A stretch of 64,000 bases of DNA, taken from the NCBI RefSeq assembly GCF_003334405.1, contig NZ_QOWM01000012.1. The stretch is one strand, 5' to 3'. The position numbers were made by a program, and so were the translations under genes. Positions 8,199 to 63,348 of this stretch are shown piece after piece (positions within the stretch are counted from its first letter, which is position 1; each line of letters opens with the position of its first letter). Source of the DNA: Escherichia coli (lineage in GTDB: Bacteria > Pseudomonadota > Gammaproteobacteria > Enterobacterales > Enterobacteriaceae). Below the pieces are notes generated by a model that made no database searches, was not told the origin of the DNA, and was given only the letters and a program-made list of their open reading frames with translations.

Positions 8199-9260
8199 TT
8201 ACACTTTGATCAAAACGGATTCGTTCTGTTGAAATTGAGGCGCATCATCAAGCTGTAAGGCGGCACTCACCTCTTCCTGCTGATGGCCCGACTGTTGTTG
8301 TTGCTGCGACTGCCCTTCGGAGGAGACCTGTACGTTCACCTCCATAAAATTTTGCGCCGTCAGATGCTGGCGGAGATCGTCGCTAAACTGCTGTAACGCG
8401 CGGCAAACTTCACTTTGGTTCGCGCCGATGTGCACCATCAGTTTGCCGTTGTCGAGTTGTACGGCGATCTCGAGCTTGCCAAGCGACGGTGGATCGAGAC
8501 GGATGGTGGAGATCTGCTGTTGTTTGTTGAGCTGAAAGTGGATCTGATCTTTCAAAAGCGTCGTCAGTTTTTCGCCCAGTTCGTCCATCGAAAGCGTGGC
8601 TGGTTTGGCGACAATCTCCTGATGCTCGCTGAGCAGCTCCGGCGTCTTAACCTGCAACACCGCACGCGCAATAACCGGTTCGCTGTCCGGCACTTTTTCC
8701 GTTTTACGCTCGACCTGCGGGCGCGCGGTCACACGGGTTAGTTCAGGTTTTGGGCGAGCTGGCTGTGTTGAAACGCGCGGCTGCGTCGGCGCAATGGCAT
8801 GTAAATCTTCACTGGCGTAAGTCGCCAGTCTGGCCTGCTGTTCGGGCTTCGCCTGTGGCAACTGACTGATCAGTTCCTGCAACTGCGGCGGCAACGGCGT
8901 GAGTTCCTGCTGTTGCGTCTGGCGTTGCGGCGCGTTTTGCACCACCGCTTTCGTCAATTGCTGGATAACCGGCGATGTTGCGACGTTTCGCGGCTGCGGC
9001 GTGTGCTGATGCGGCGCGGCAGGTTGTGGAAGTAACAGCGCCATTAGCGCCTGCATCGCCACCGGATCGTTCTCCTGCGGGCGCGTCGCCTGTTGCTGAC
9101 TGGTTTTAGCGCTATGAACGCGCTCCGCCACCGCCGCGACCGCCATTTTCGGCAGGGTAAACGCGGGCGCGTTTTCACCGCTCACCGGCGGTAAAATATC
9201 CGCCTTCAACGAAGCGGTTTCCGCAAGCGTTCCGAGCGTGGCAAGCAATGCCGGATTCAT
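8199..9260 (-). CDS. lafE: hook-length control protein LafE (FliK-like)
   Basis: 353 aa, Q/P-rich central region and conserved FliK C-terminal domain (IRLDPPSLGKLEIAVQLDNGKLMVHIGANQSEV). Confidence 0.7.
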   Translation of the reverse strand: MNPALLATLGTLAETASLKADILPPVSGENAPAFTLPKMAVAAVAERVHSAKTSQQQATRPQENDPVAMQALMALLLPQPAAPHQHTPQPRNVATSPVIQQLTKAVVQNAPQRQTQQQELTPLPPQLQELISQLPQAKPEQQARLATYASEDLHAIAPTQPRVSTQPARPKPELTRVTARPQVERKTEKVPDSEPVIARAVLQVKTPELLSEHQEIVAKPATLSMDELGEKLTTLLKDQIHFQLNKQQQISTIRLDPPSLGKLEIAVQLDNGKLMVHIGANQSEVCRALQQFSDDLRQHLTAQNFMEVNVQVSSEGQSQQQQQSGHQQEEVSAALQLDDAPQFQQNESVLIKV

Positions 9261-17289: not shown

Positions 17290-17505
<216 letters not shown>

Positions 17506-19631: not shown

Positions 19632-19790
19632 GTAGGTCGGATAAGACGCGTCAGCGTCGCATCCGACAACAAGCGTGTGCACATTGCCCGATGCGCGTGT
19701 GGACGGTTTATAAACGGTTAATCAACCAAACTATGTGCACCGTCCACTCGCTTATCGTGCCTACAAGGGCGTCAGCGTCGCATCCGACAT
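19632..19790. repeat. REP-like palindromic units
   Basis: gtaggtcggataagacgcgtcagcgtcgcatccgac at both ends of the interval. Confidence 0.5.
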
Positions 19791-52098: not shown

Positions 52099-53235
52099 CT
52101 ACGAAAGCCCGCTCCCCGCAAGGACTGACGCCAGGTAGTTTCTGTCCATGGCTGCTTTTCGCATCTTACGTCTTAACCCTGCCTTGAATACCTTCTCATT
52201 CGTCAAAATATTAATAGCAATGTGCCGTATCCCTGAAAATAATTCTGCTGCGTTTCCTCTTCTTATTTTGTAGTCGTCTTCATTCATTACCACGTCCAGA
52301 CGCCTGTGCAGCTTATTCTCCACGTGCCAGTGGTTTCGGATTGCTGTGGCGAACTTCTCTGCGGTTAAATCAGCAGAACTGATATAATATCTGACCGTCA
52401 TTTCTGGCTCTTTCTTTTGTTCTGCTATTATTGACCGAAAGGAGACTGCCACGCATAATTTCTTCAGCCCTTTCCATTCAAACGTGAAATCAATAAGTTC
52501 ATCAGGGACATCGCAAACAATATGAAGACGGATTTCTTCTCTGCCGTGACTCTTTTCACTCATTGCGTAACTGTCATGCGCTGGATTATTTAATTCTTTC
52601 AGCGGAAATTTTTCCTCAAAGGCTTTATTTAGCCGCCCCTGGTTTCCTTTTACCGCGAATAAATAATCACCTCCCTGTTTTTGTATCTTCTCTGCAATAT
52701 CTTTCTGGCAACCCATCGCATCAGTTGTGATGATTTTTCCTTTAATATCCAGCATGTTAAGAAGTTCTGGGATAGCTGTAATCTCATTAGATTTCTCATC
52801 CGTCCTGATCTGTCCGATGACCAGACTGTGCATTGTTGAGAACGCACTAATGACATGAATCGCTCCCTTGCGGCGACTCTTGTCATAAGAATGCCGGAGT
52901 GTTTTTCCATCAATTGCGATGACGTCTTTATCATCTGAAGTATGGCAATCTCGCATCCAGTTAATAAAGCACTCGTGAAATTTTGAAGGACTGATACAGG
53001 ATACAACTCTGGCGATGGTATCGTGAACAGGAATACCATTTTCAAAATCACCATATTGTTTTAAAAAATCGAGATGTGTTTCCCCAAAATCCTCTATATC
53101 TTCCCAGCCTTCTGCACCAGAAATAACGGCACAAATAGTCAACAGTAGAATATCCGATAATTTATGTTCCACTTTCCAGGCTTGTCTGTAATCGGGGATA
53201 ATAGAAATATGTTCCATCAATTTTTTAAGTTCCAT
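52099..53235 (-). mobile_element. ISAs1-family (H-repeat) transposase, full-length ORF
   Basis: 378-aa [21 protein letters not shown]...; H-repeat-associated protein family typical next to Rhs elements; corresponds positionally to K-12 pseudogene yafF. Confidence 0.8.
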
Positions 53236-53665: not shown

Positions 53666-54058
53666 TCATTGATGCAATTCGTAGATTTGAAGAAGTTCAA
53701 CTGCCACATTTTTATTTTTACTATCGCAATTTTTATACCATACCCATGCTTCCGTATTTTTTACTTTTTTTAAATCATCCATAATAAAATCCCCACCAAA
53801 AACAGTAAAATACAATGTTTCCTCATTAAAAATAAAACTCACTGCCCCCCCCTCTTTTATTTTAATTTCCGCTTCATTTGTGTTCAAATCAACTTTTTTA
53901 ATTACTCCATGTAAGTTGGGTTTTGATAGTTTTTCTACGCCACCATCAGGAGCGGGTAATATACATCGTTTAAGAACTTTAGCATTTGCACATCCAATAA
54001 CCCAAATTAGAATGCACACTCCCATGTTAATCGCATTAACGTGTCTTAAAACGTTCAT
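53666..54058 (-). CDS. candidate immunity lipoprotein for the Rhs C-terminal toxin
   Basis: 130-aa AT-rich ORF immediately downstream of rhs tip; N-terminal signal sequence with lipobox-like VIGC; start codon uncertain. Confidence 0.45.
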
Positions 54059-55478
54059 ATCTAATTCTCTCTCCAGGATGCGAATACATCCAACTTGTCA
54101 CTTTCTTACACAACTCATCTACATCTTCATTCTGTGCACGGGTACATCCCATAGTTGGTTTCCAGCCTTGTCGAGGAGCATAAGGATCGCGCAACGATGA
54201 TCCCCCACCATGTAGCCATCTTGCTCTAGTATCTGTAGTATAGATCTTCGTTGTGCCATATGCTGCCGATATTCCTGATTCATTTGTCTCACAACCAACG
54301 ACTTCACCTGTATATGGATCACCAGCACCACGTTGAGAACGACGATCAATTCTATTGCTACTATCAAAAGTCATTGAATCACCTGTTTCAGGATCATAAT
54401 AAATAGTCACTCCTCCAGTCATATCAGTAAGAACAAGAGGAGTTTCAGCACCTGCCCGGTCTGGAGCGGGAGGCCCATATACACTTATAACTCGTTCTAA
54501 CCCCAGTGGATCAGTGTAACGTATTGGTACCAGTGGATACGTGTATAGATTTATTCCCCCCTTCAACCCTATCGGATCCTGGGTGATATACCGCCCCTGC
54601 AACGGATCGTAGTACCGGTGACGGTTGTAATACAGTCCCGACTCCTCATCATACTGCTGCCCCGGCAGACGGAGTGACTGTTGAAGGTGCTGCGCACTGG
54701 TTTCGCCCAGCAGGTTTCCCCATTCGTCATACTCCCCGCACCACGCCGTTTCCCCTTCCGGGCTGATAAGCGCCTGCGGCAGTCCCCGGTGGTCACAGTG
54801 GTAAAGATGAAGTTTCCTCTCCGGGATGTATTCCGCCTCCATCTGCGCGGCCATCTGTTCCGCCGTCAGCCCGCACTGCGCAAGCCATGCCTCACTCTCC
54901 GCACTCACCGCTCCCGCGCGCAGTTCCCGCTCCAGCCTCCCCAGCATCACCGCCAGCTCCGCCGGGAGCGTCACACCCGTGTCCTCCTGCAACACCTCCG
55001 CCAGGCTCCGGTGCCGCGCCTTCGCCTGTTCGCCATTCTCTGTTTCGATTCTGATGAGCGGCGTGAAGCTCCCCGGCTGGTATACCGTCTGGATACGCGT
55101 GGTGCCGGTCTGTACCGTCGTCAGCCTGTCACCGTCCCACCCGTACCATGTCACCTCCGGTTTACGCGACAGCGACATCCACCCCGTCAGGTCACGCTCC
55201 CGCCGCCATACCCGTTTTCCCGTCCGGCGGCCCAGCGGGTCATAGAGGTACCGGCTCTCCACCTGTGGTTCGCCGTGCTGTATCCGCGTGTAGAACACCA
55301 GGCGGTGCTGGCTGTCGTAGTGGTAGTGGTGGGTCCGCTCGTCGTGCATCCGTATCACCCCTTCCGGGATGCGGTCCGTCTTCTCCGCCAGCCTGCCGTA
55401 TTCATCGTGGCGGTAGACATAGTGCGCATCTTCCGCGATGCGGTTACCCGGCGTTTTCCCCGATGCTGGTTGAGTGGC
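54036..55478 (-). CDS. rhs: Rhs protein C-terminal fragment (core repeats + DPLGL boundary + L,D-transpeptidase-like toxin domain)
   Basis: YD/Rhs repeats ([20 protein letters not shown]), conserved ...[26 protein letters not shown]...DPLGL core end, then 153-aa tip with LHGG...[15 protein letters not shown]; frame opens only at 55478, so N-terminal ~1000 aa absent. Confidence 0.7.
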
Positions 55479-57958
55479 TTAAAGAGGGCTGGCTGCTGGC
55501 GTCGGCTGAGATGCAGCACAGCGAACTGCGCGGCGGCGTGTTGCTGCTGGCCCTGCTGCATTCGCCGCTGCGTTATATACCGCCTGCTGCCGCCCGGCTG
55601 TTGACCGGCATTAACCGTGACCGTCTGCAACAGGACTTTGTGCAGTGGACACAGGAGTCGGCGGAATCAGTCGTGCCGGATGCAGACGGTAAAGGCGCAG
55701 GCACAATGACGGACGCCTCTGACACCCTGCTTGCCCGCTATGCCAAAAACATGACCGCAGACGCCCGTAACGGCAGGCTTGACCCGGTACTGTGCCGCGA
55801 CCACGAAATCGACCTGATGATCGACATTCTCTGCCGCCGCCGTAAAAACAACCCGGTGGTGGTGGGCGAAGCGGGCGTGGGCAAAAGCGCACTGATTGAA
55901 GGGCTGGCGCTGCGCATCGTGGCAGGCCAGGTGCCGGACAAGCTGAAAAACACCGATATCATGACCCTTGACTTGGGCGCATTGCAGGCCGGGGCGTCGG
56001 TGAAGGGTGAATTCGAAAAACGTTTCAAAGGGCTGATGGCGGAGGTCATTTCCTCCCCGGTGCCGGTCATTCTGTTTATCGACGAAGCACATACCCTGAT
56101 TGGCGCGGGCAACCAGCAGGGCGGGCTGGATATCTCCAACCTGCTCAAACCGGCGCTGGCGCGCGGCGAGCTGAAAACCATCGCCGCCACCACCTGGAGC
56201 GAGTACAAAAAATACTTCGAAAAAGATGCCGCCCTGTCGCGCCGCTTCCAGTTGGTGAAGGTCAGCGAACCCAACGCTGCCGAAGCCACCATTATTCTGC
56301 GCGGTCTGTCGGCGGTCTATGAACAGTCTCACGGCGTGCTGATTGATGATGACGCCTTGCAGGCCGCTGCGACATTAAGCGAGCGTTATCTCTCCGGGCG
56401 TCAGTTACCGGACAAAGCGATTGATGTGCTGGATACCGCCTGCGCCCGTGTGGCCATCAACCTGTCGTCGCCGCCGAAGCAAATCTCGGCGCTGACCACT
56501 CTGAGCCACCAGCAGGAGGCGGAAATTCGCCAGCTTGAGCGCGAGCTTCGCATCGGACTGCGTACCGACACATCACGGATGACAGAGGTGCTGGTGCAGT
56601 ATGATGAAACGCTGACGGCGCTGGATGAACTGGAAGCGGCCTGGCACCAGCAGCAGACGCTGGTCCGGGAGATTATCGCGCTGCGCCAGCAGTTACTGGG
56701 CGTGGCAGAGGACGATGCGGCGCCGTTGCCGGACGCAGATACCGTGGAGGATACGCAGCCAGAGTCAGAGTCAGAACAGGATAATACCGGTGCCGTACCG
56801 GCTGATGAGGCCGACAGAGAACAACCGGAAGAGACCGCTGAAACAGTTTCCCCGGTACAGCGGCTGGCCCAGCTCACTGCCGAACTGGACGCCCTGCATA
56901 ACGACCGGTTGCTGGTCTCCCCGCACGTCGATAAAAAACAGATTGCGGCGGTGATTGCCGAATGGACCGGCGTGCCGCTCAACCGCCTGTCGCAGAATGA
57001 AATGTCGGTCATCACCGACCTGACGAAATGGCTGGGTGACACCATCAAAGGCCAGGACCTGGCGATTGCCAGCCTGCATAAGCATCTACTGACCGCACGC
57101 GCCGACCTGCGTCGTCCGGGACGCCCGCTCGGTGCGTTCCTGCTGGCTGGCCCCAGCGGTGTGGGTAAAACCGAAACCGTCCTGCAACTGGCAGAGCTGC
57201 TCTACGGCGGTCGCCAGTACCTGACCACCATCAATATGTCCGAATTCCAGGAGAAACACACCGTCTCGCGGCTGATTGGTTCGCCTCCGGGCTACGTTGG
57301 CTACGGTGAAGGCGGCGTACTGACCGAAGCGATTCGTCAGAAACCCTACTCGGTAGTACTGCTCGATGAAGTGGAAAAAGCGCACCCGGATGTGCTCAAC
57401 CTGTTCTACCAGGCGTTCGATAAGGGCGAAATGGCAGACGGTGAAGGCCGCCTGATTGACTGCAAAAATATCGTCTTCTTCCTGACGTCCAACCTCGGCT
57501 ACCAGGTAATAGTCGAGCATGCCGATGACCCGGAAACCATGCAGGAAGTACTGTATCCGGTGCTGGCCGACTTCTTCAAACCTGCCCTGCTGGCGCGTAT
57601 GGAAGTGGTGCCGTATCTGCCGCTGTCGAAAGAGACGCTCGCCACCATTATCGCCGGAAAACTGGCCCGTCTGGATAACGTGCTGCGCAGTCGCTTTGGT
57701 GCAGAAGTGGTCATTGAACCGGAAGTGACGGACGAAATCATGAGCCGCGTCACCCGCGCGGAAAACGGCGCGAGGATGCTGGAATCGGTCATCGATGGCG
57801 ACATGCTACCGCCGCTCTCGCTGCTGCTGTTGCAGAAAATGGCGGCTAACACGGCGATTGCCCGGATTCGGTTGTCGGCAGTGGACGGCGCATTTACGGC
57901 AGACGTGGAAGATGCTCAGAACGACGAGTCCGTCACAAAGGATGAAACGGTTTTATGA
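55463..57958 (+). CDS. clpV: ClpV-like AAA+ ATPase (TssH), 5-prime end abutting rhs fragment; N-domain short or truncated
   Basis: Two AAA+ modules (GEAGVGKSA; GPSGVGKTE); N-terminal segment [10 protein letters not shown]...; only ~85 aa precede the linker ([19 protein letters not shown]) versus ~150 expected; no RBS or intergenic space. Confidence 0.7.
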
Positions 57959-58698
57959 GCAGGTTGCGCGTTTTCCGGCAGACAGGATGGTTTATCGCGG
58001 GCCTGATGACGGGCTTACCCGCCACTGCCGCGCCCGCAGAAGCATCGTCAATGGCCGGTGTGGCGGTCGCCGTCGCCACCACGACCCCGCCGGATGCGAC
58101 AGCCACGTTACAGGCCATACAGTCCTGTCGGCGGGAGTCCGCGGCGCTGGAGCGGCTTGACTGCTATGACCGCCTGCTGGCACCGCTGTCCCCGTCAGGG
58201 TTTGACGGGGCGCTGGTCAAAGCCGGTTTTGTGGGCGAGGCCTGGACCCGCGCCACAGAGCAGGAAAAACGCCGCGAGGGCAACACCACAGAACTGCTGG
58301 TGACGCAGGTGCCGGGGGAGCGCCCGACGGTGGTGATAACCACCCCGGCTATCGGTCATGTTCCGCCACGCCCGGTGCTGATGTTCAGTTGCGTGGACAA
58401 TATCACCCGGATGCAGGTGGCGCTGATGCACCCTCTGGATGTCCATGATATCGCCGTCACTCTGAATGCCGACAACCGGGCATTGCGCAGCCACTGGTTT
58501 GTGCGCGAGAACGGCACCCTGCTGGAGTCCAGCCGGGGGTTATCCGGGATTGATGAAATTAAGCAACTGTTCGGCGCAAAAACGCTGACGGTGGATACCA
58601 GGGACGACGTATCGGGCCTTATGTGGAACAGACCTATCTGCAACTGCTGGAGCAACGTTACCTGCCCTCGCTGTTTAACGGGCTGGTCAAAGCGATGA
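57955..58698 (+). CDS. secreted protein, possibly T6SS-associated (VasI-like); 3-prime end runs into tssM fragment
   Basis: Signal peptide [30 protein letters not shown]; ATGA overlap with clpV stop; assignment by position and composition only. Confidence 0.35.
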   Translation: MSRLRVFRQTGWFIAGLMTGLPATAAPAEASSMAGVAVAVATTTPPDATATLQAIQSCRRESAALERLDCYDRLLAPLSPSGFDGALVKAGFVGEAWTRATEQEKRREGNTTELLVTQVPGERPTVVITTPAIGHVPPRPVLMFSCVDNITRMQVALMHPLDVHDIAVTLNADNRALRSHWFVRENGTLLESSRGLSGIDEIKQLFGAKTLTVDTRDDVSGLMWNRPICNCWSNVTCPRCLTGWSKR

Positions 58699-60521
58699 AC
58701 GCCGCGCCGCCGGAGAGTGAAGAAAAACTCGCGGTGCTGCGCGTAATGCGAATGCTGGAGGACAAAAGCGGACGTAACAATGAGGTGGTGAAGCAGTATA
58801 TGGCAAAACGCTGGAGCGAAAAATTCCACGGCCAGCGCGATATCCAGGCACAACTGATGTCCCATCTTGACTACGCGCTGGCTCATACTGACTGGCATGC
58901 AGAGCGTCAGGCGGGCGACGGTGACGCCATCAGCCGCTGGACGCCATATGACAAGCCCGTGGTATCAGCACAGAAAGAACTGAGCAAACTGCCTGTCTAC
59001 CAGCGGGTTTACCAGAGCCTGAAAACGCGGGCGCTGGGCGTTCTTCCTGCCGACCTCAATCTGCGTGACCAGGTAGGGCCAACCTTTGACCAGGTGTTTA
59101 CATCTGCCGATGACAACAAACTGGTTGTTCCACAGTTTCTTACCCGTTACGGCCTGCAAAGCTATTTTGTAAAACAGCGCGATGAACTGGTTGAACTGAC
59201 GGCGATGGATTCCTGGGTACTTAACCTTACCCGCAGCGTGAAATACAGTGACGCCGACCGCGCGGAAATCCAGCGCCAGTTGACCGAGCAGTATATCAGC
59301 GACTACACCGCCACCTGGCGGGCCGGGATGGACAATCTGAATATCCGCAATTTTGAGTCCATCGGACAACTGACCGGGGCGCTGGAGCAGGTTATCAGCG
59401 GCGACCAGCCTTTGCAGCGGGCGCTGACCGTCCTGCGTGACAACACACAGCCAGGCGTCTTTTCTGAAAAACTCTCTGCCAAAGAACGGGAGGAAGCCCT
59501 GGCAGAGCCGGATTACCAGTTACTCACCCGCCTCGGGCATGAATTCGCCCCGGAAAACAGTACCCTGGCAGTACAGAAAGACAAAGAAAGCACGATGCAG
59601 GCCGTGTATCAGCAACTCACCGAGTTGCACCGCTACCTGCTGGCAATCCAGAACGCGCCTGTACCAGGGAAATCGGCGCTGAAAGCCGTGCAGTTACGGC
59701 TTGATCAGAACAGCAGCGATCCGATATTCGCCACCCGCCAGATGGCAAAAACGCTGCCTGCTCCGCTCAACCGCTGGGTTGGCAGACTGACTGACCAGGC
59801 CTGGCATGTGGTGATGGTGGAGGCTGTTCATTATATGGAAGTGGACTGGCGCGACAGCGTGGTGAAACCGTTTAACGAGCAACTGGCAAATAACTATCCG
59901 TTTAATCCGCGTTCTGCACAGGATGCCTCACTGGATGCCTTCGAACGCTTCTTTAAACCGGATGGCATACTGGATACCTTCTACCAGCAGAACCTGAAGC
60001 TGTTTATCGATAATGACCTGAGTCTGGAGGATGGCGATAACAACGTCATTATTCGCGAAGATATTATTGCGCAACTGGAAACTGCGCAGAAAATCCGTGA
60101 CATCTTCTTCAGCAAACAGAACGGTCTGGGAACATCCTTTGCCGTGGAAACGGTATCGCTTTCAGGCAATAAACGCCGCAGTGTACTGAACCTTGACGGT
60201 CAGTTAGTCGATTACAGCCAGGGCCGTAACTATACCGCCCATCTGGTCTGGCCTAACAACATGCGCGAAGGCAACGAAAGTAAGCTGACGCTCATCGGCA
60301 CCAGCGGCAACGCGCCGCGCAGTATCAGCTTCAGCGGGCCGTGGGCGCAGTTCCGCCTGTTCGGGGCCGGACAACTGACCGGAGTACAGGATGGCAACTT
60401 TACCGTGCGCTTTAGCGTGGACGGTGGCGCGATGACCTACCGTGTGCATACCGACACGGAAGATAACCCGTTCAGCGGTGGGTTGTTCAGCCAGTTTGGT
60501 CTGTCAGACACACTGTACTGA
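58623..60521 (+). pseudogene. tssM: TssM (IcmF) C-terminal fragment, lacks N-terminal TM/NTPase region
   Basis: 632-aa ORF resembling the periplasmic IcmF-related and C-terminal domains (…FERFFKPDGILDTFYQQNL…, …FRLFGAGQLTG…); frame opens at ~58563 with GTG start only. Confidence 0.5.
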
Positions 60522-62390: not shown

Positions 62391-62433
62391 CTTACTGTAA
62401 TAACATAATAAATTACTATTGCGGAGAGATAAA

Positions 62434-63348
62434 ATGGCTGGTTTAAGGAATAACAACAACACACAGAATGCACAGTGGGCTGATTATGTGGGTGACATTC
62501 TTCGGGGGGCTCAGCCGATAAACCAGCTAGTACCTCAGCACCCTTATCTTAACGACGTCCCACTCATTGATGAGTTAAGGCATCAGAACACTCATCATGT
62601 TATTCCCTTGACACTTGATGTTGCAAAAAAAATACTCAGCCCAATAACATCATTTGATTACATTCATTTTATCACTACACATCCTTCAGGTATAAAAGAT
62701 ACACTCGCCTGGTTAGTTAACGCGGGTAAATTAATGACTGAGTTTGATGACAATGGGAAAATTATATTTAACCTTAATGCCTTAAAGTATACAAAAGCAA
62801 GTTACTTTGAAATACTTGGAGAGAAATATATAAAAATCACAACATCCAGCCCCTGGCTTTTAGAAAAGCTCGGTAAATATATTTTCTCTTCACGAGCGCC
62901 TCAAGTTCTGGAACTCGCTATTGGCTGGCGAGGAGCTTTATCTGAATCAATAAAAGGAGTTAAGTTCTGTATCTGGTTTTCAGTAGCCTGGAGAACCATA
63001 GAATTTATTATGAGTTCAGAGCGAGATCTGGTTAATTTTCTTGGCGATTTTTCAATGGATGTGGCCAAAGCAGTTATAGCCGGTGGTGTTGCAACCGCTA
63101 TTGGAAGTCTGGCTTCTTTTGCCTGTGTTAGCTTTGGCTTTCCAGTAATTCTTGTCGGAGGAGCAATTTTACTGACAGGGATAGTGTGTACAGTTGTTTT
63201 AAATGAAATCGATGCTCAATGCCATTTATCAGAAAAATTAAAATATGCAATTAGAGATGGACTAAAACGGCAACAGGAACTTGATAAATGGAAAAGGGAA
63301 AACATGACTCCATTTATGTATGTTCTTAACACTCCACCCGTGATATGA
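62434..63348 (+). CDS. candidate Hcp-linked membrane-targeting effector (glycine-zipper C-terminal region), function unknown
   Basis: 304-aa ORF 44 nt after hcp, RBS GGAGAG; C-terminal hydrophobic segments AVIAGGVATAIGSLASFACVSFGFPVILVGGAILLTGIV with small-xxx-small spacing; AT-rich. Confidence 0.4.
   Translation: MAGLRNNNNTQNAQWADYVGDILRGAQPINQLVPQHPYLNDVPLIDELRHQNTHHVIPLTLDVAKKILSPITSFDYIHFITTHPSGIKDTLAWLVNAGKLMTEFDDNGKIIFNLNALKYTKASYFEILGEKYIKITTSSPWLLEKLGKYIFSSRAPQVLELAIGWRGALSESIKGVKFCIWFSVAWRTIEFIMSSERDLVNFLGDFSMDVAKAVIAGGVATAIGSLASFACVSFGFPVILVGGAILLTGIVCTVVLNEIDAQCHLSEKLKYAIRDGLKRQQELDKWKRENMTPFMYVLNTPPVI

Follow-up and report, generated by a model that had tools for sequence, protein, structure and literature searches.

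A head-to-head rhs–tssH junction in the aspV island of Escherichia coli is almost certainly the scar of a deletion in the T6SS-2 cluster

In ST410-B/H24 Escherichia coli, the second type VI secretion system (T6SS-2) was lost through a 21.0-kb deletion between rhsG and tssM that had no mobile element at the site, and the 100-bp rhsG–tssM junction served as a clonal marker (Cummins et al. 2023, PMC10711316). Here we describe a related junction, at which a fragment of an rhs gene meets a remnant of tssH (clpV) in the opposite orientation, in a 64,000-nucleotide stretch of the E. coli contig NZ_QOWM01000012.1 (assembly GCF_003334405.1; this whole stretch is called the window). We conclude that the junction is almost certainly the scar of a single ~16.2-kb deletion inside the T6SS-2 cluster of the aspV island. 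As in ST410, the event affected T6SS-2 in the same island, one breakpoint lies in the vgrG-linked rhs and the other in a structural gene of the tss set, the site is free of mobile elements, and the junction is clonally inherited and usable as a lineage marker. Unlike the 21.0-kb deletion of ST410, the present one spans ~16.2 kb from Rhs residue ~939 to tssH codon 85, and it initially left the truncated tssH, vasI and the genes downstream in place. The analogous ST410 deletion was all that we found in the searchable literature; our searches met no description of this particular rhs–tssH junction.

Strain IAI1 (NC_011741; TssH WP_000614405.1) provides an intact counterpart. Its aspV island begins with rhs, vgrG and hcp on the minus strand and continues on the plus strand with tssB, a small open reading frame (ORF), tssC, tssE, tssF, tssG, tagH, tssJ, tssK, tssL (icmH), tssH, vasI, tssA, tssM, a gene with a VasL domain, hcp, a hypothetical gene and ykfM, after which come yafT and aspV (tRNA-Asp). 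The cluster of strain 214-4 has the same gene order; it carries an ISEc23 element inside tssF (L003 10369–14761). Positions in reference loci are given here with the labels L001 (WP5-S17-ESBL-10), L002 (IAI1), L003 (214-4), L004 (CP8-3), L005 (BR1220) and L006 (UMNF18).

Alignment of the window with these clusters located the missing DNA. Window positions 54555–55452 align to the IAI1 rhs gene at L002 2845–3742, and the sequence from 55445 onward aligns to tssH from L002 19991. Absent between the breakpoints are L002 3743–19990, or 16,248 bp, which hold the codons for Rhs residues 1 to ~939 (of ~1,410), vgrG, hcp, eleven tss and tag genes, and tssH codons 1–84. IAI1, unlike the window, keeps this segment (the 5' part of rhs, vgrG, hcp, tssBCEFG, tagH, tssJKL and the first 84 codons of tssH) as well as tssA and the 5' half of tssM. 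The genes that remain in the window have the same order and orientation as in IAI1, with 92.9% identity in rhs and 96.7–99.8% from tssH to ykfM. Since the flanks stand in the same relative orientation as in IAI1, one deletion suffices and no inversion is needed; an inversion or a more complex rearrangement was rejected because the relative orientation of rhs and tssH is equal in the intact clusters of IAI1 and 214-4. A preliminary description of the window had proposed a deletion or rearrangement scar, and the alignment resolves this into a plain deletion. The same arrangement with a full-length N-domain and a working T6SS was not found; in both intact-type clusters inspected, tssH is preceded by tssL. 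With the genes for the sheath, baseplate and membrane complex deleted, the cluster can no longer produce its apparatus.

We next placed the breakpoint at the level of single bases, using a three-way alignment of the window with Rhs parents (the first L001 copy and IAI1) and tssH parents (214-4 and IAI1). Compared with these loci from complete E. coli genomes, Rhs homology stops at 55452 and tssH homology starts at 55445, such that the last Rhs-derived base is one of 55444–55452 and the first tssH-derived base one of 55445–55447. The 8-mer at the join is TACCCGGC in the window, TACCCGGC in the tssH parent and TATCCGGC in the Rhs parent. Both parents thus share the imperfect microhomology TA(C/T)CCGGC, which matches at 7 of 8 bases with TA exact. 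In its wider context the Rhs parent reads ...GCGGTTATCCGGCCA..., the tssH parent ...CAGCTACCCGGCGTTTT... and the window ...GCGGTTACCCGGCGTTTT.... Collinear flanks in the orientation of the intact reference, a direct join and a short shared sequence are the features of a simple short-homology deletion scar.

An alternative is loss through a mobile element, or through homologous recombination between long repeats (ISAs1/H-rpt or rhs with rhs). ISAs1-family elements do lie nearby (52099–53235), and rhs–rhs recombination did occur within this same fragment (Table 1). At 55445–55452, however, the alignment showed no insertion sequence (IS) or IS end, no inverted repeat, no target duplication and no filler DNA; similarity between rhs and tssH is limited to the 7 of 8 bases at the join, and more than 2 kb separate the join from the closest IS. 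IS-mediated deletion was rejected because the join contains no IS sequence, and we regard loss by any mobile element or long repeat as highly improbable. The deletion would instead have arisen by illegitimate recombination at TA(C/T)CCGGC. In an ancestor with the order rhs, vgrG, hcp (minus strand) and tssB, tssC, tssE, tssF, tssG, tagH, tssJ, tssK, tssL, tssH (plus strand), such an event would have joined tssH at codon 85 to rhs at roughly two thirds of its length, with loss of the DNA between them, leaving both flanking genes as pseudogenes without promoters or start sites. Neither is likely to be expressed. Later decay in the lineage of the window would have comprised a homologous crossover between rhs copies and a 3.1-kb deletion from vasI to tssM.

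The reading frames around the join extend beyond the genes from which they derive. On the minus strand, the Rhs frame ends with its stop at 54036 and stays open as far as 55478, where it is closed by TTA at 55479–55481 (TAA on the minus strand); on the plus strand, the TssH-like frame has an ATG at 55463–55465 and ends at 57958. The limits of 55478 and 55463 had been read correctly from the sequence before, and the conclusion drawn from them, that the two genes abut or overlap, stands insofar as no intergenic bases separate them. These two positions are mechanical frame limits, whereas the gene limits lie at 55445–55452. The tssH frame moreover meets no stop as far upstream as an ATG at 55148, giving a mechanical ORF of 936 amino acids (55148–57958), because the antisense strand of the G+C-rich Rhs core (G+C 0.622) has few stop codons. 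Several other long antisense ORFs cover the same core (for example, 54681–55604), and open frames past the breakpoint are therefore uninformative; their overlap is a chance effect of G+C-rich sequence.

The remnant of tssH is a truncated but otherwise well-preserved gene. It is 99.97% identical to tssH of 214-4 from L003 19991 onward, with a single-base difference, which, on the time scale of point mutation, makes the deletion a recent one. The intact gene starts at locus position 19739 in both IAI1 and 214-4; homology thus begins at codon 85 (Tyr85), and the ATG at 55463 corresponds to Met91. The product from Met91 scores 1,072 bits against the TssH profile TIGR03345 (cut-off 884.95) over profile positions 80–851 of 852. 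In the translation, the Walker A and Walker B motifs of both intact AAA+ modules can be read. Intact TssH has an N-domain at residues 2–159, which aligned to Vibrio cholerae ClpV-N (PDB 3ZRI; E = 1.7e-34) and more weakly to ClpV1-N of enteroaggregative E. coli (4HH5). Measured against these structures (3ZRI/3ZRJ and 4HH5/4HH6), the window keeps the C-terminal part of the domain and lacks residues 1–84, along with profile positions 1–79, so that the N-domain that distinguishes the family is incomplete. A preliminary estimate of ~85 N-terminal residues where ~150 are expected was right about the truncation and approximately right about its extent: 69–75 of 159 residues are left. The N-domain of ClpV recruits the ATPase to contracted sheaths. 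In it, H0, H1 and the H4–H5 loop form a groove that binds a helix of TssC (PMC5048182). The lost residues 1–84 include helices H0 and H1 and hence most elements of this groove, and more than half of the 159-residue domain is gone.

Could the two fragments nonetheless be a functional head-to-head pair, in which a shortened ClpV is made from Met91 or from the ATG at 55148, an orphan Rhs fragment is made from an internal start, and the signals for both are embedded in the coding sequence? The tssH frame is uninterrupted over 831–936 codons with both AAA+ modules, and the rhs tip and the 130-amino-acid ORF downstream of it are intact. Several observations argue against such a pair. No sigma-70-like promoter was found in 54900–55700, a weak negative given that the scan used a simple consensus, and the bases before the ATG at 55463, GGCGTTTTCCCCG, contain no Shine–Dalgarno-like purine run. 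The native start and 84 codons of tssH are deleted, and what precedes Met91 in the open frame is 105 codons of antisense rhs without homology to TssH. The island also lacks tssB and tssC, the genes for the ClpV substrate, and the H0 and H1 parts of the TssC-binding groove are lost. Finally, other carriers of the junction have lost more of tssH, as in UMNF18, where a further deletion fuses tssH to vasI (L006 10646–12414) beside the primary junction, indicating that there is no selection to retain it. We therefore hold a functional pair to be very unlikely. The site is an ordinary pseudogene junction rather than an unusual gene arrangement, and for neither flanking fragment did we find signs of function.

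No observation contradicts the deletion itself, although some points of the reading are weaker. The microhomology is exact over 2 bp only (the 7 of 8 matches being imperfect), and the recombination mechanism is thus a proposed one. With 99.97–100% identity to intact alleles and without an internal stop, the tssH remnant shows no demonstrable decay of its own sequence. Some read-through transcription of the remnant from the antisense rhs side may also occur.

To determine how widely the junction is distributed, we searched 5,426 complete E. coli genomes with a 1,401-bp query spanning the join (coverage at least 80%). It was present in 38 genomes, with 99.8–100% identity among the 30 matches listed, and the hosts of the carriers include pigs, humans and a goose from several countries. 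This bears on the suspicion that the join is a chimera produced when repeat-rich regions were assembled and rhs repeats collapsed. Rhs cores are multi-copy (a median of eight matching places per genome) and are a known source of misassembly, but the same junction recurs in 38 independently sequenced complete genomes, and on the tssH side the sequence is single-copy (median one place per genome). Sequence of tssH is present in 2,793 genomes. An assembly artefact was rejected on the strength of this recurrence and is extremely improbable. In the carriers, RefSeq annotation by the Prokaryotic Genome Annotation Pipeline (PGAP) labels both genes as incomplete pseudogenes that lack the N-terminus and are partial within a contig; the junction is already implicitly recorded in RefSeq as two partial pseudogenes.

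Table 1 Features of the T6SS-2 remnant in the window.
Feature	Coordinates	Strand	Description	Basis
130-amino-acid ORF	53666..54058	-	Directly downstream of the rhs tip	ORF list; PGAP WP_001101839.1 in BR1220
rhs pseudogene fragment	54036..55452	-	Last ~318 Rhs core residues and 153-residue toxin tip; ~939 N-terminal residues missing	
rhs–rhs crossover interval	54637..54667	.	31 bp; homologous recombination between tandem rhs copies, chimeric fragment	
Upstream extension of the tssH frame	55148..55444	+	Chance reading through antisense Rhs core, not TssH-derived	ORF list; tssH homology only from 55445
Deletion junction	55445..55452	.	8-bp join, no inserted bases	Three-way alignment with Rhs parents (L001 copy 1, IAI1) and tssH parents (214-4, IAI1)
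tssH/clpV pseudogene	55445..57958	+	5' end deleted; codons 85–921 of the 921-amino-acid TssH of 214-4	Homology and TIGR03345
Read-through of the Rhs frame	55453..55478	-	Chance reading into antisense tssH, not Rhs-derived	Homology end at 55452; frame closure by TTA at 55479–55481
vasI, 3' truncated	57955..58599	+	Last 33 codons lost	Alignment and translation
Second deletion junction	58596..58599	.	4-bp microhomology TACC; ~3.13 kb gone (vasI end, tssA, tssM codons 1–503)	
tssM 3' part	58596..60521	+	Codon 504 to end	TIGR03348 positions 526–1167 of 1168

On the other side of the junction, the rhs fragment retains the end of the Rhs core. Its frame contains YD repeats and the core-end DPxGL motif (PxxxxDPxGL), followed by a variable tip, and the Rhs-associated core profile TIGR03696 scores 83 bits. 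The core is not full-length: the match to NF041261 (RHS_core of NCBIfam) covers positions 939–1261 of 1261 with 656 bits against a cut-off of 2000. The tip has a G+C content of 0.435 compared with 0.622 in the core. Within the tip (54036–54497, minus strand) we noted the pattern H-G-G-G ... G-C-T-R and a weak Pfam match to YkuD, the L,D-transpeptidase catalytic domain (E = 4.4e-4), which hints at a peptidoglycan-targeting, Tlde1-like toxin. A PDB sequence search with the tip returned nothing below E = 0.79, and a single-sequence AlphaFold model was unusable (mean predicted local distance difference test score 33.7). The 130-amino-acid ORF had no match in NCBIfam or PADLOC and only a weak one, to DUF4367, in Pfam; its position suggests that it is an immunity gene. 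It is intact in the window and in BR1220, and the same stretch is annotated as two shorter hypothetical ORFs in WP5-S17-ESBL-10 and CP8-3; the alignments of these two strains depart from the window at 53845 and 53853, respectively, which points to a frameshift there.

The fragment resembles the orphan rhs C-terminal toxin/immunity modules of Enterobacteriaceae, which likewise consist of an rhs truncated at its 5' end that still has the end of the core, the DPxGL motif and a variable tip, with a small ORF downstream. Those modules lie downstream of a full-length rhs, whereas the window has none beside the fragment, and here the fragment arose when a deletion took the secretion apparatus with it, not when a tip was displaced in an rhs array. 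It is conceivable, though improbable in our judgement, that the remnant has been kept because it is useful, with the tip and the 130-amino-acid ORF serving as an immunity cassette or as a reservoir of toxin tips or, in a weaker version, with the shortened ClpV being retained. The cassette would then confer immunity against kin delivering this Rhs toxin; a reservoir would recombine with other rhs loci of the genome, and the differing crossovers of the window and BR1220 would be its traces; and an N-terminally shortened ClpV would be made and act on something other than its own sheath. Retention for immunity or as recombination stock is unlikely to exceed local interest.

Two further lesions are private to the island of the window. 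Over 53846–54667 the window matches the distal, full-length rhs of WP5-S17-ESBL-10 without a difference, and over 54637–55700 it is identical to the tssH-adjacent rhs fragment of the same strain. These two stretches of identity therefore place a crossover between rhs copies in their overlap, with the removal of ~6.2 kb. BR1220 has a similar rhs chimera that mismatches the window over 54668–54786, and its crossover therefore lies further along and represents an independent event. Downstream, vasI is fused out of frame to codon 504 of tssM; the resulting vasI-frame ORF of 247 amino acids coincidentally has the length of intact VasI. This vasI–tssM junction was found in none of the 5,426 complete genomes, and no genome of the collection combined it with the rhs chimera of the window (best match 98.9%). 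By comparison with annotated clusters, the segment between yafV and ykfM contains only the tssH, vasI and tssM remnants, the VasL-domain gene, one hcp and one hypothetical gene, and so lacks the intact set of 13 core genes (tssA–tssM) of a functional T6SS-2. The hypothetical gene between the second hcp and ykfM, a 309-amino-acid ORF (62419–63348, plus strand; WP_000908066.1), is conserved in all islands inspected and had no match in NCBIfam or PADLOC.

Other carriers of the junction show different secondary lesions. The 5' end of tssA is deleted in BR1220 (L005 15439–16374), and two carriers have IS1 insertions. WP5-S17-ESBL-10 has no additional tss lesion, and its two tandem rhs copies have an ISEc1 element between them. 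Such variety is as expected of a dead locus. CP8-3 has an independent rhs–tssM junction (L004 13792–15802), with its rhs breakpoint at the equivalent of window position 55162. The uninterrupted tssL–tssH site occurs in 2,704 genomes, and a 601-bp query across the second junction of the window, the right half of which is the 3' part of tssM, matched in 3,150. As these counts differ from one another and from the 2,793 genomes with tssH, other lineages carry other partial deletions. Given the different kinds of damage in 214-4, UMNF18, BR1220 and CP8-3, loss of T6SS-2 appears to be frequent and polyphyletic. Together with the ST410 and CP8-3 cases, the present junction is another independent T6SS-2 loss by a deletion anchored in the vgrG-linked rhs.

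For annotation, gene callers could yield a false 936-amino-acid 'AAA family ATPase', the first 105 residues of which are antisense rhs, or an 'Rhs protein' that runs into tssH, and the 247-amino-acid vasI-frame ORF could likewise mislead annotators. Both fragments deserve pseudogene flags and the strain should be scored as T6SS-2-negative. As a clonal marker, the exact junction cleanly identifies a small group of E. coli genomes (38 of 5,426); beyond correct annotation, its relevance is small.

Elsewhere in the window, between rayT and dinB, we observed a complete-looking Flag-2 lateral flagellar cluster (flhA ... lafA ... motA, lafU; ~5186–43119) that is 99.9% identical to that of CP8-3. Between the genes for the rod-binding protein and flgK of this cluster (~17292–17501), the window is 118 bp shorter than CP8-3; Tandem Repeats Finder reported nothing at this length difference, and overlapping BLAST segments suggest a difference in repeat copy number. 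In CP8-3, the annotation marks a fliK-like gene of this cluster (equivalent to ~8199–9260 of the window) as a pseudogene that contains an internal stop.

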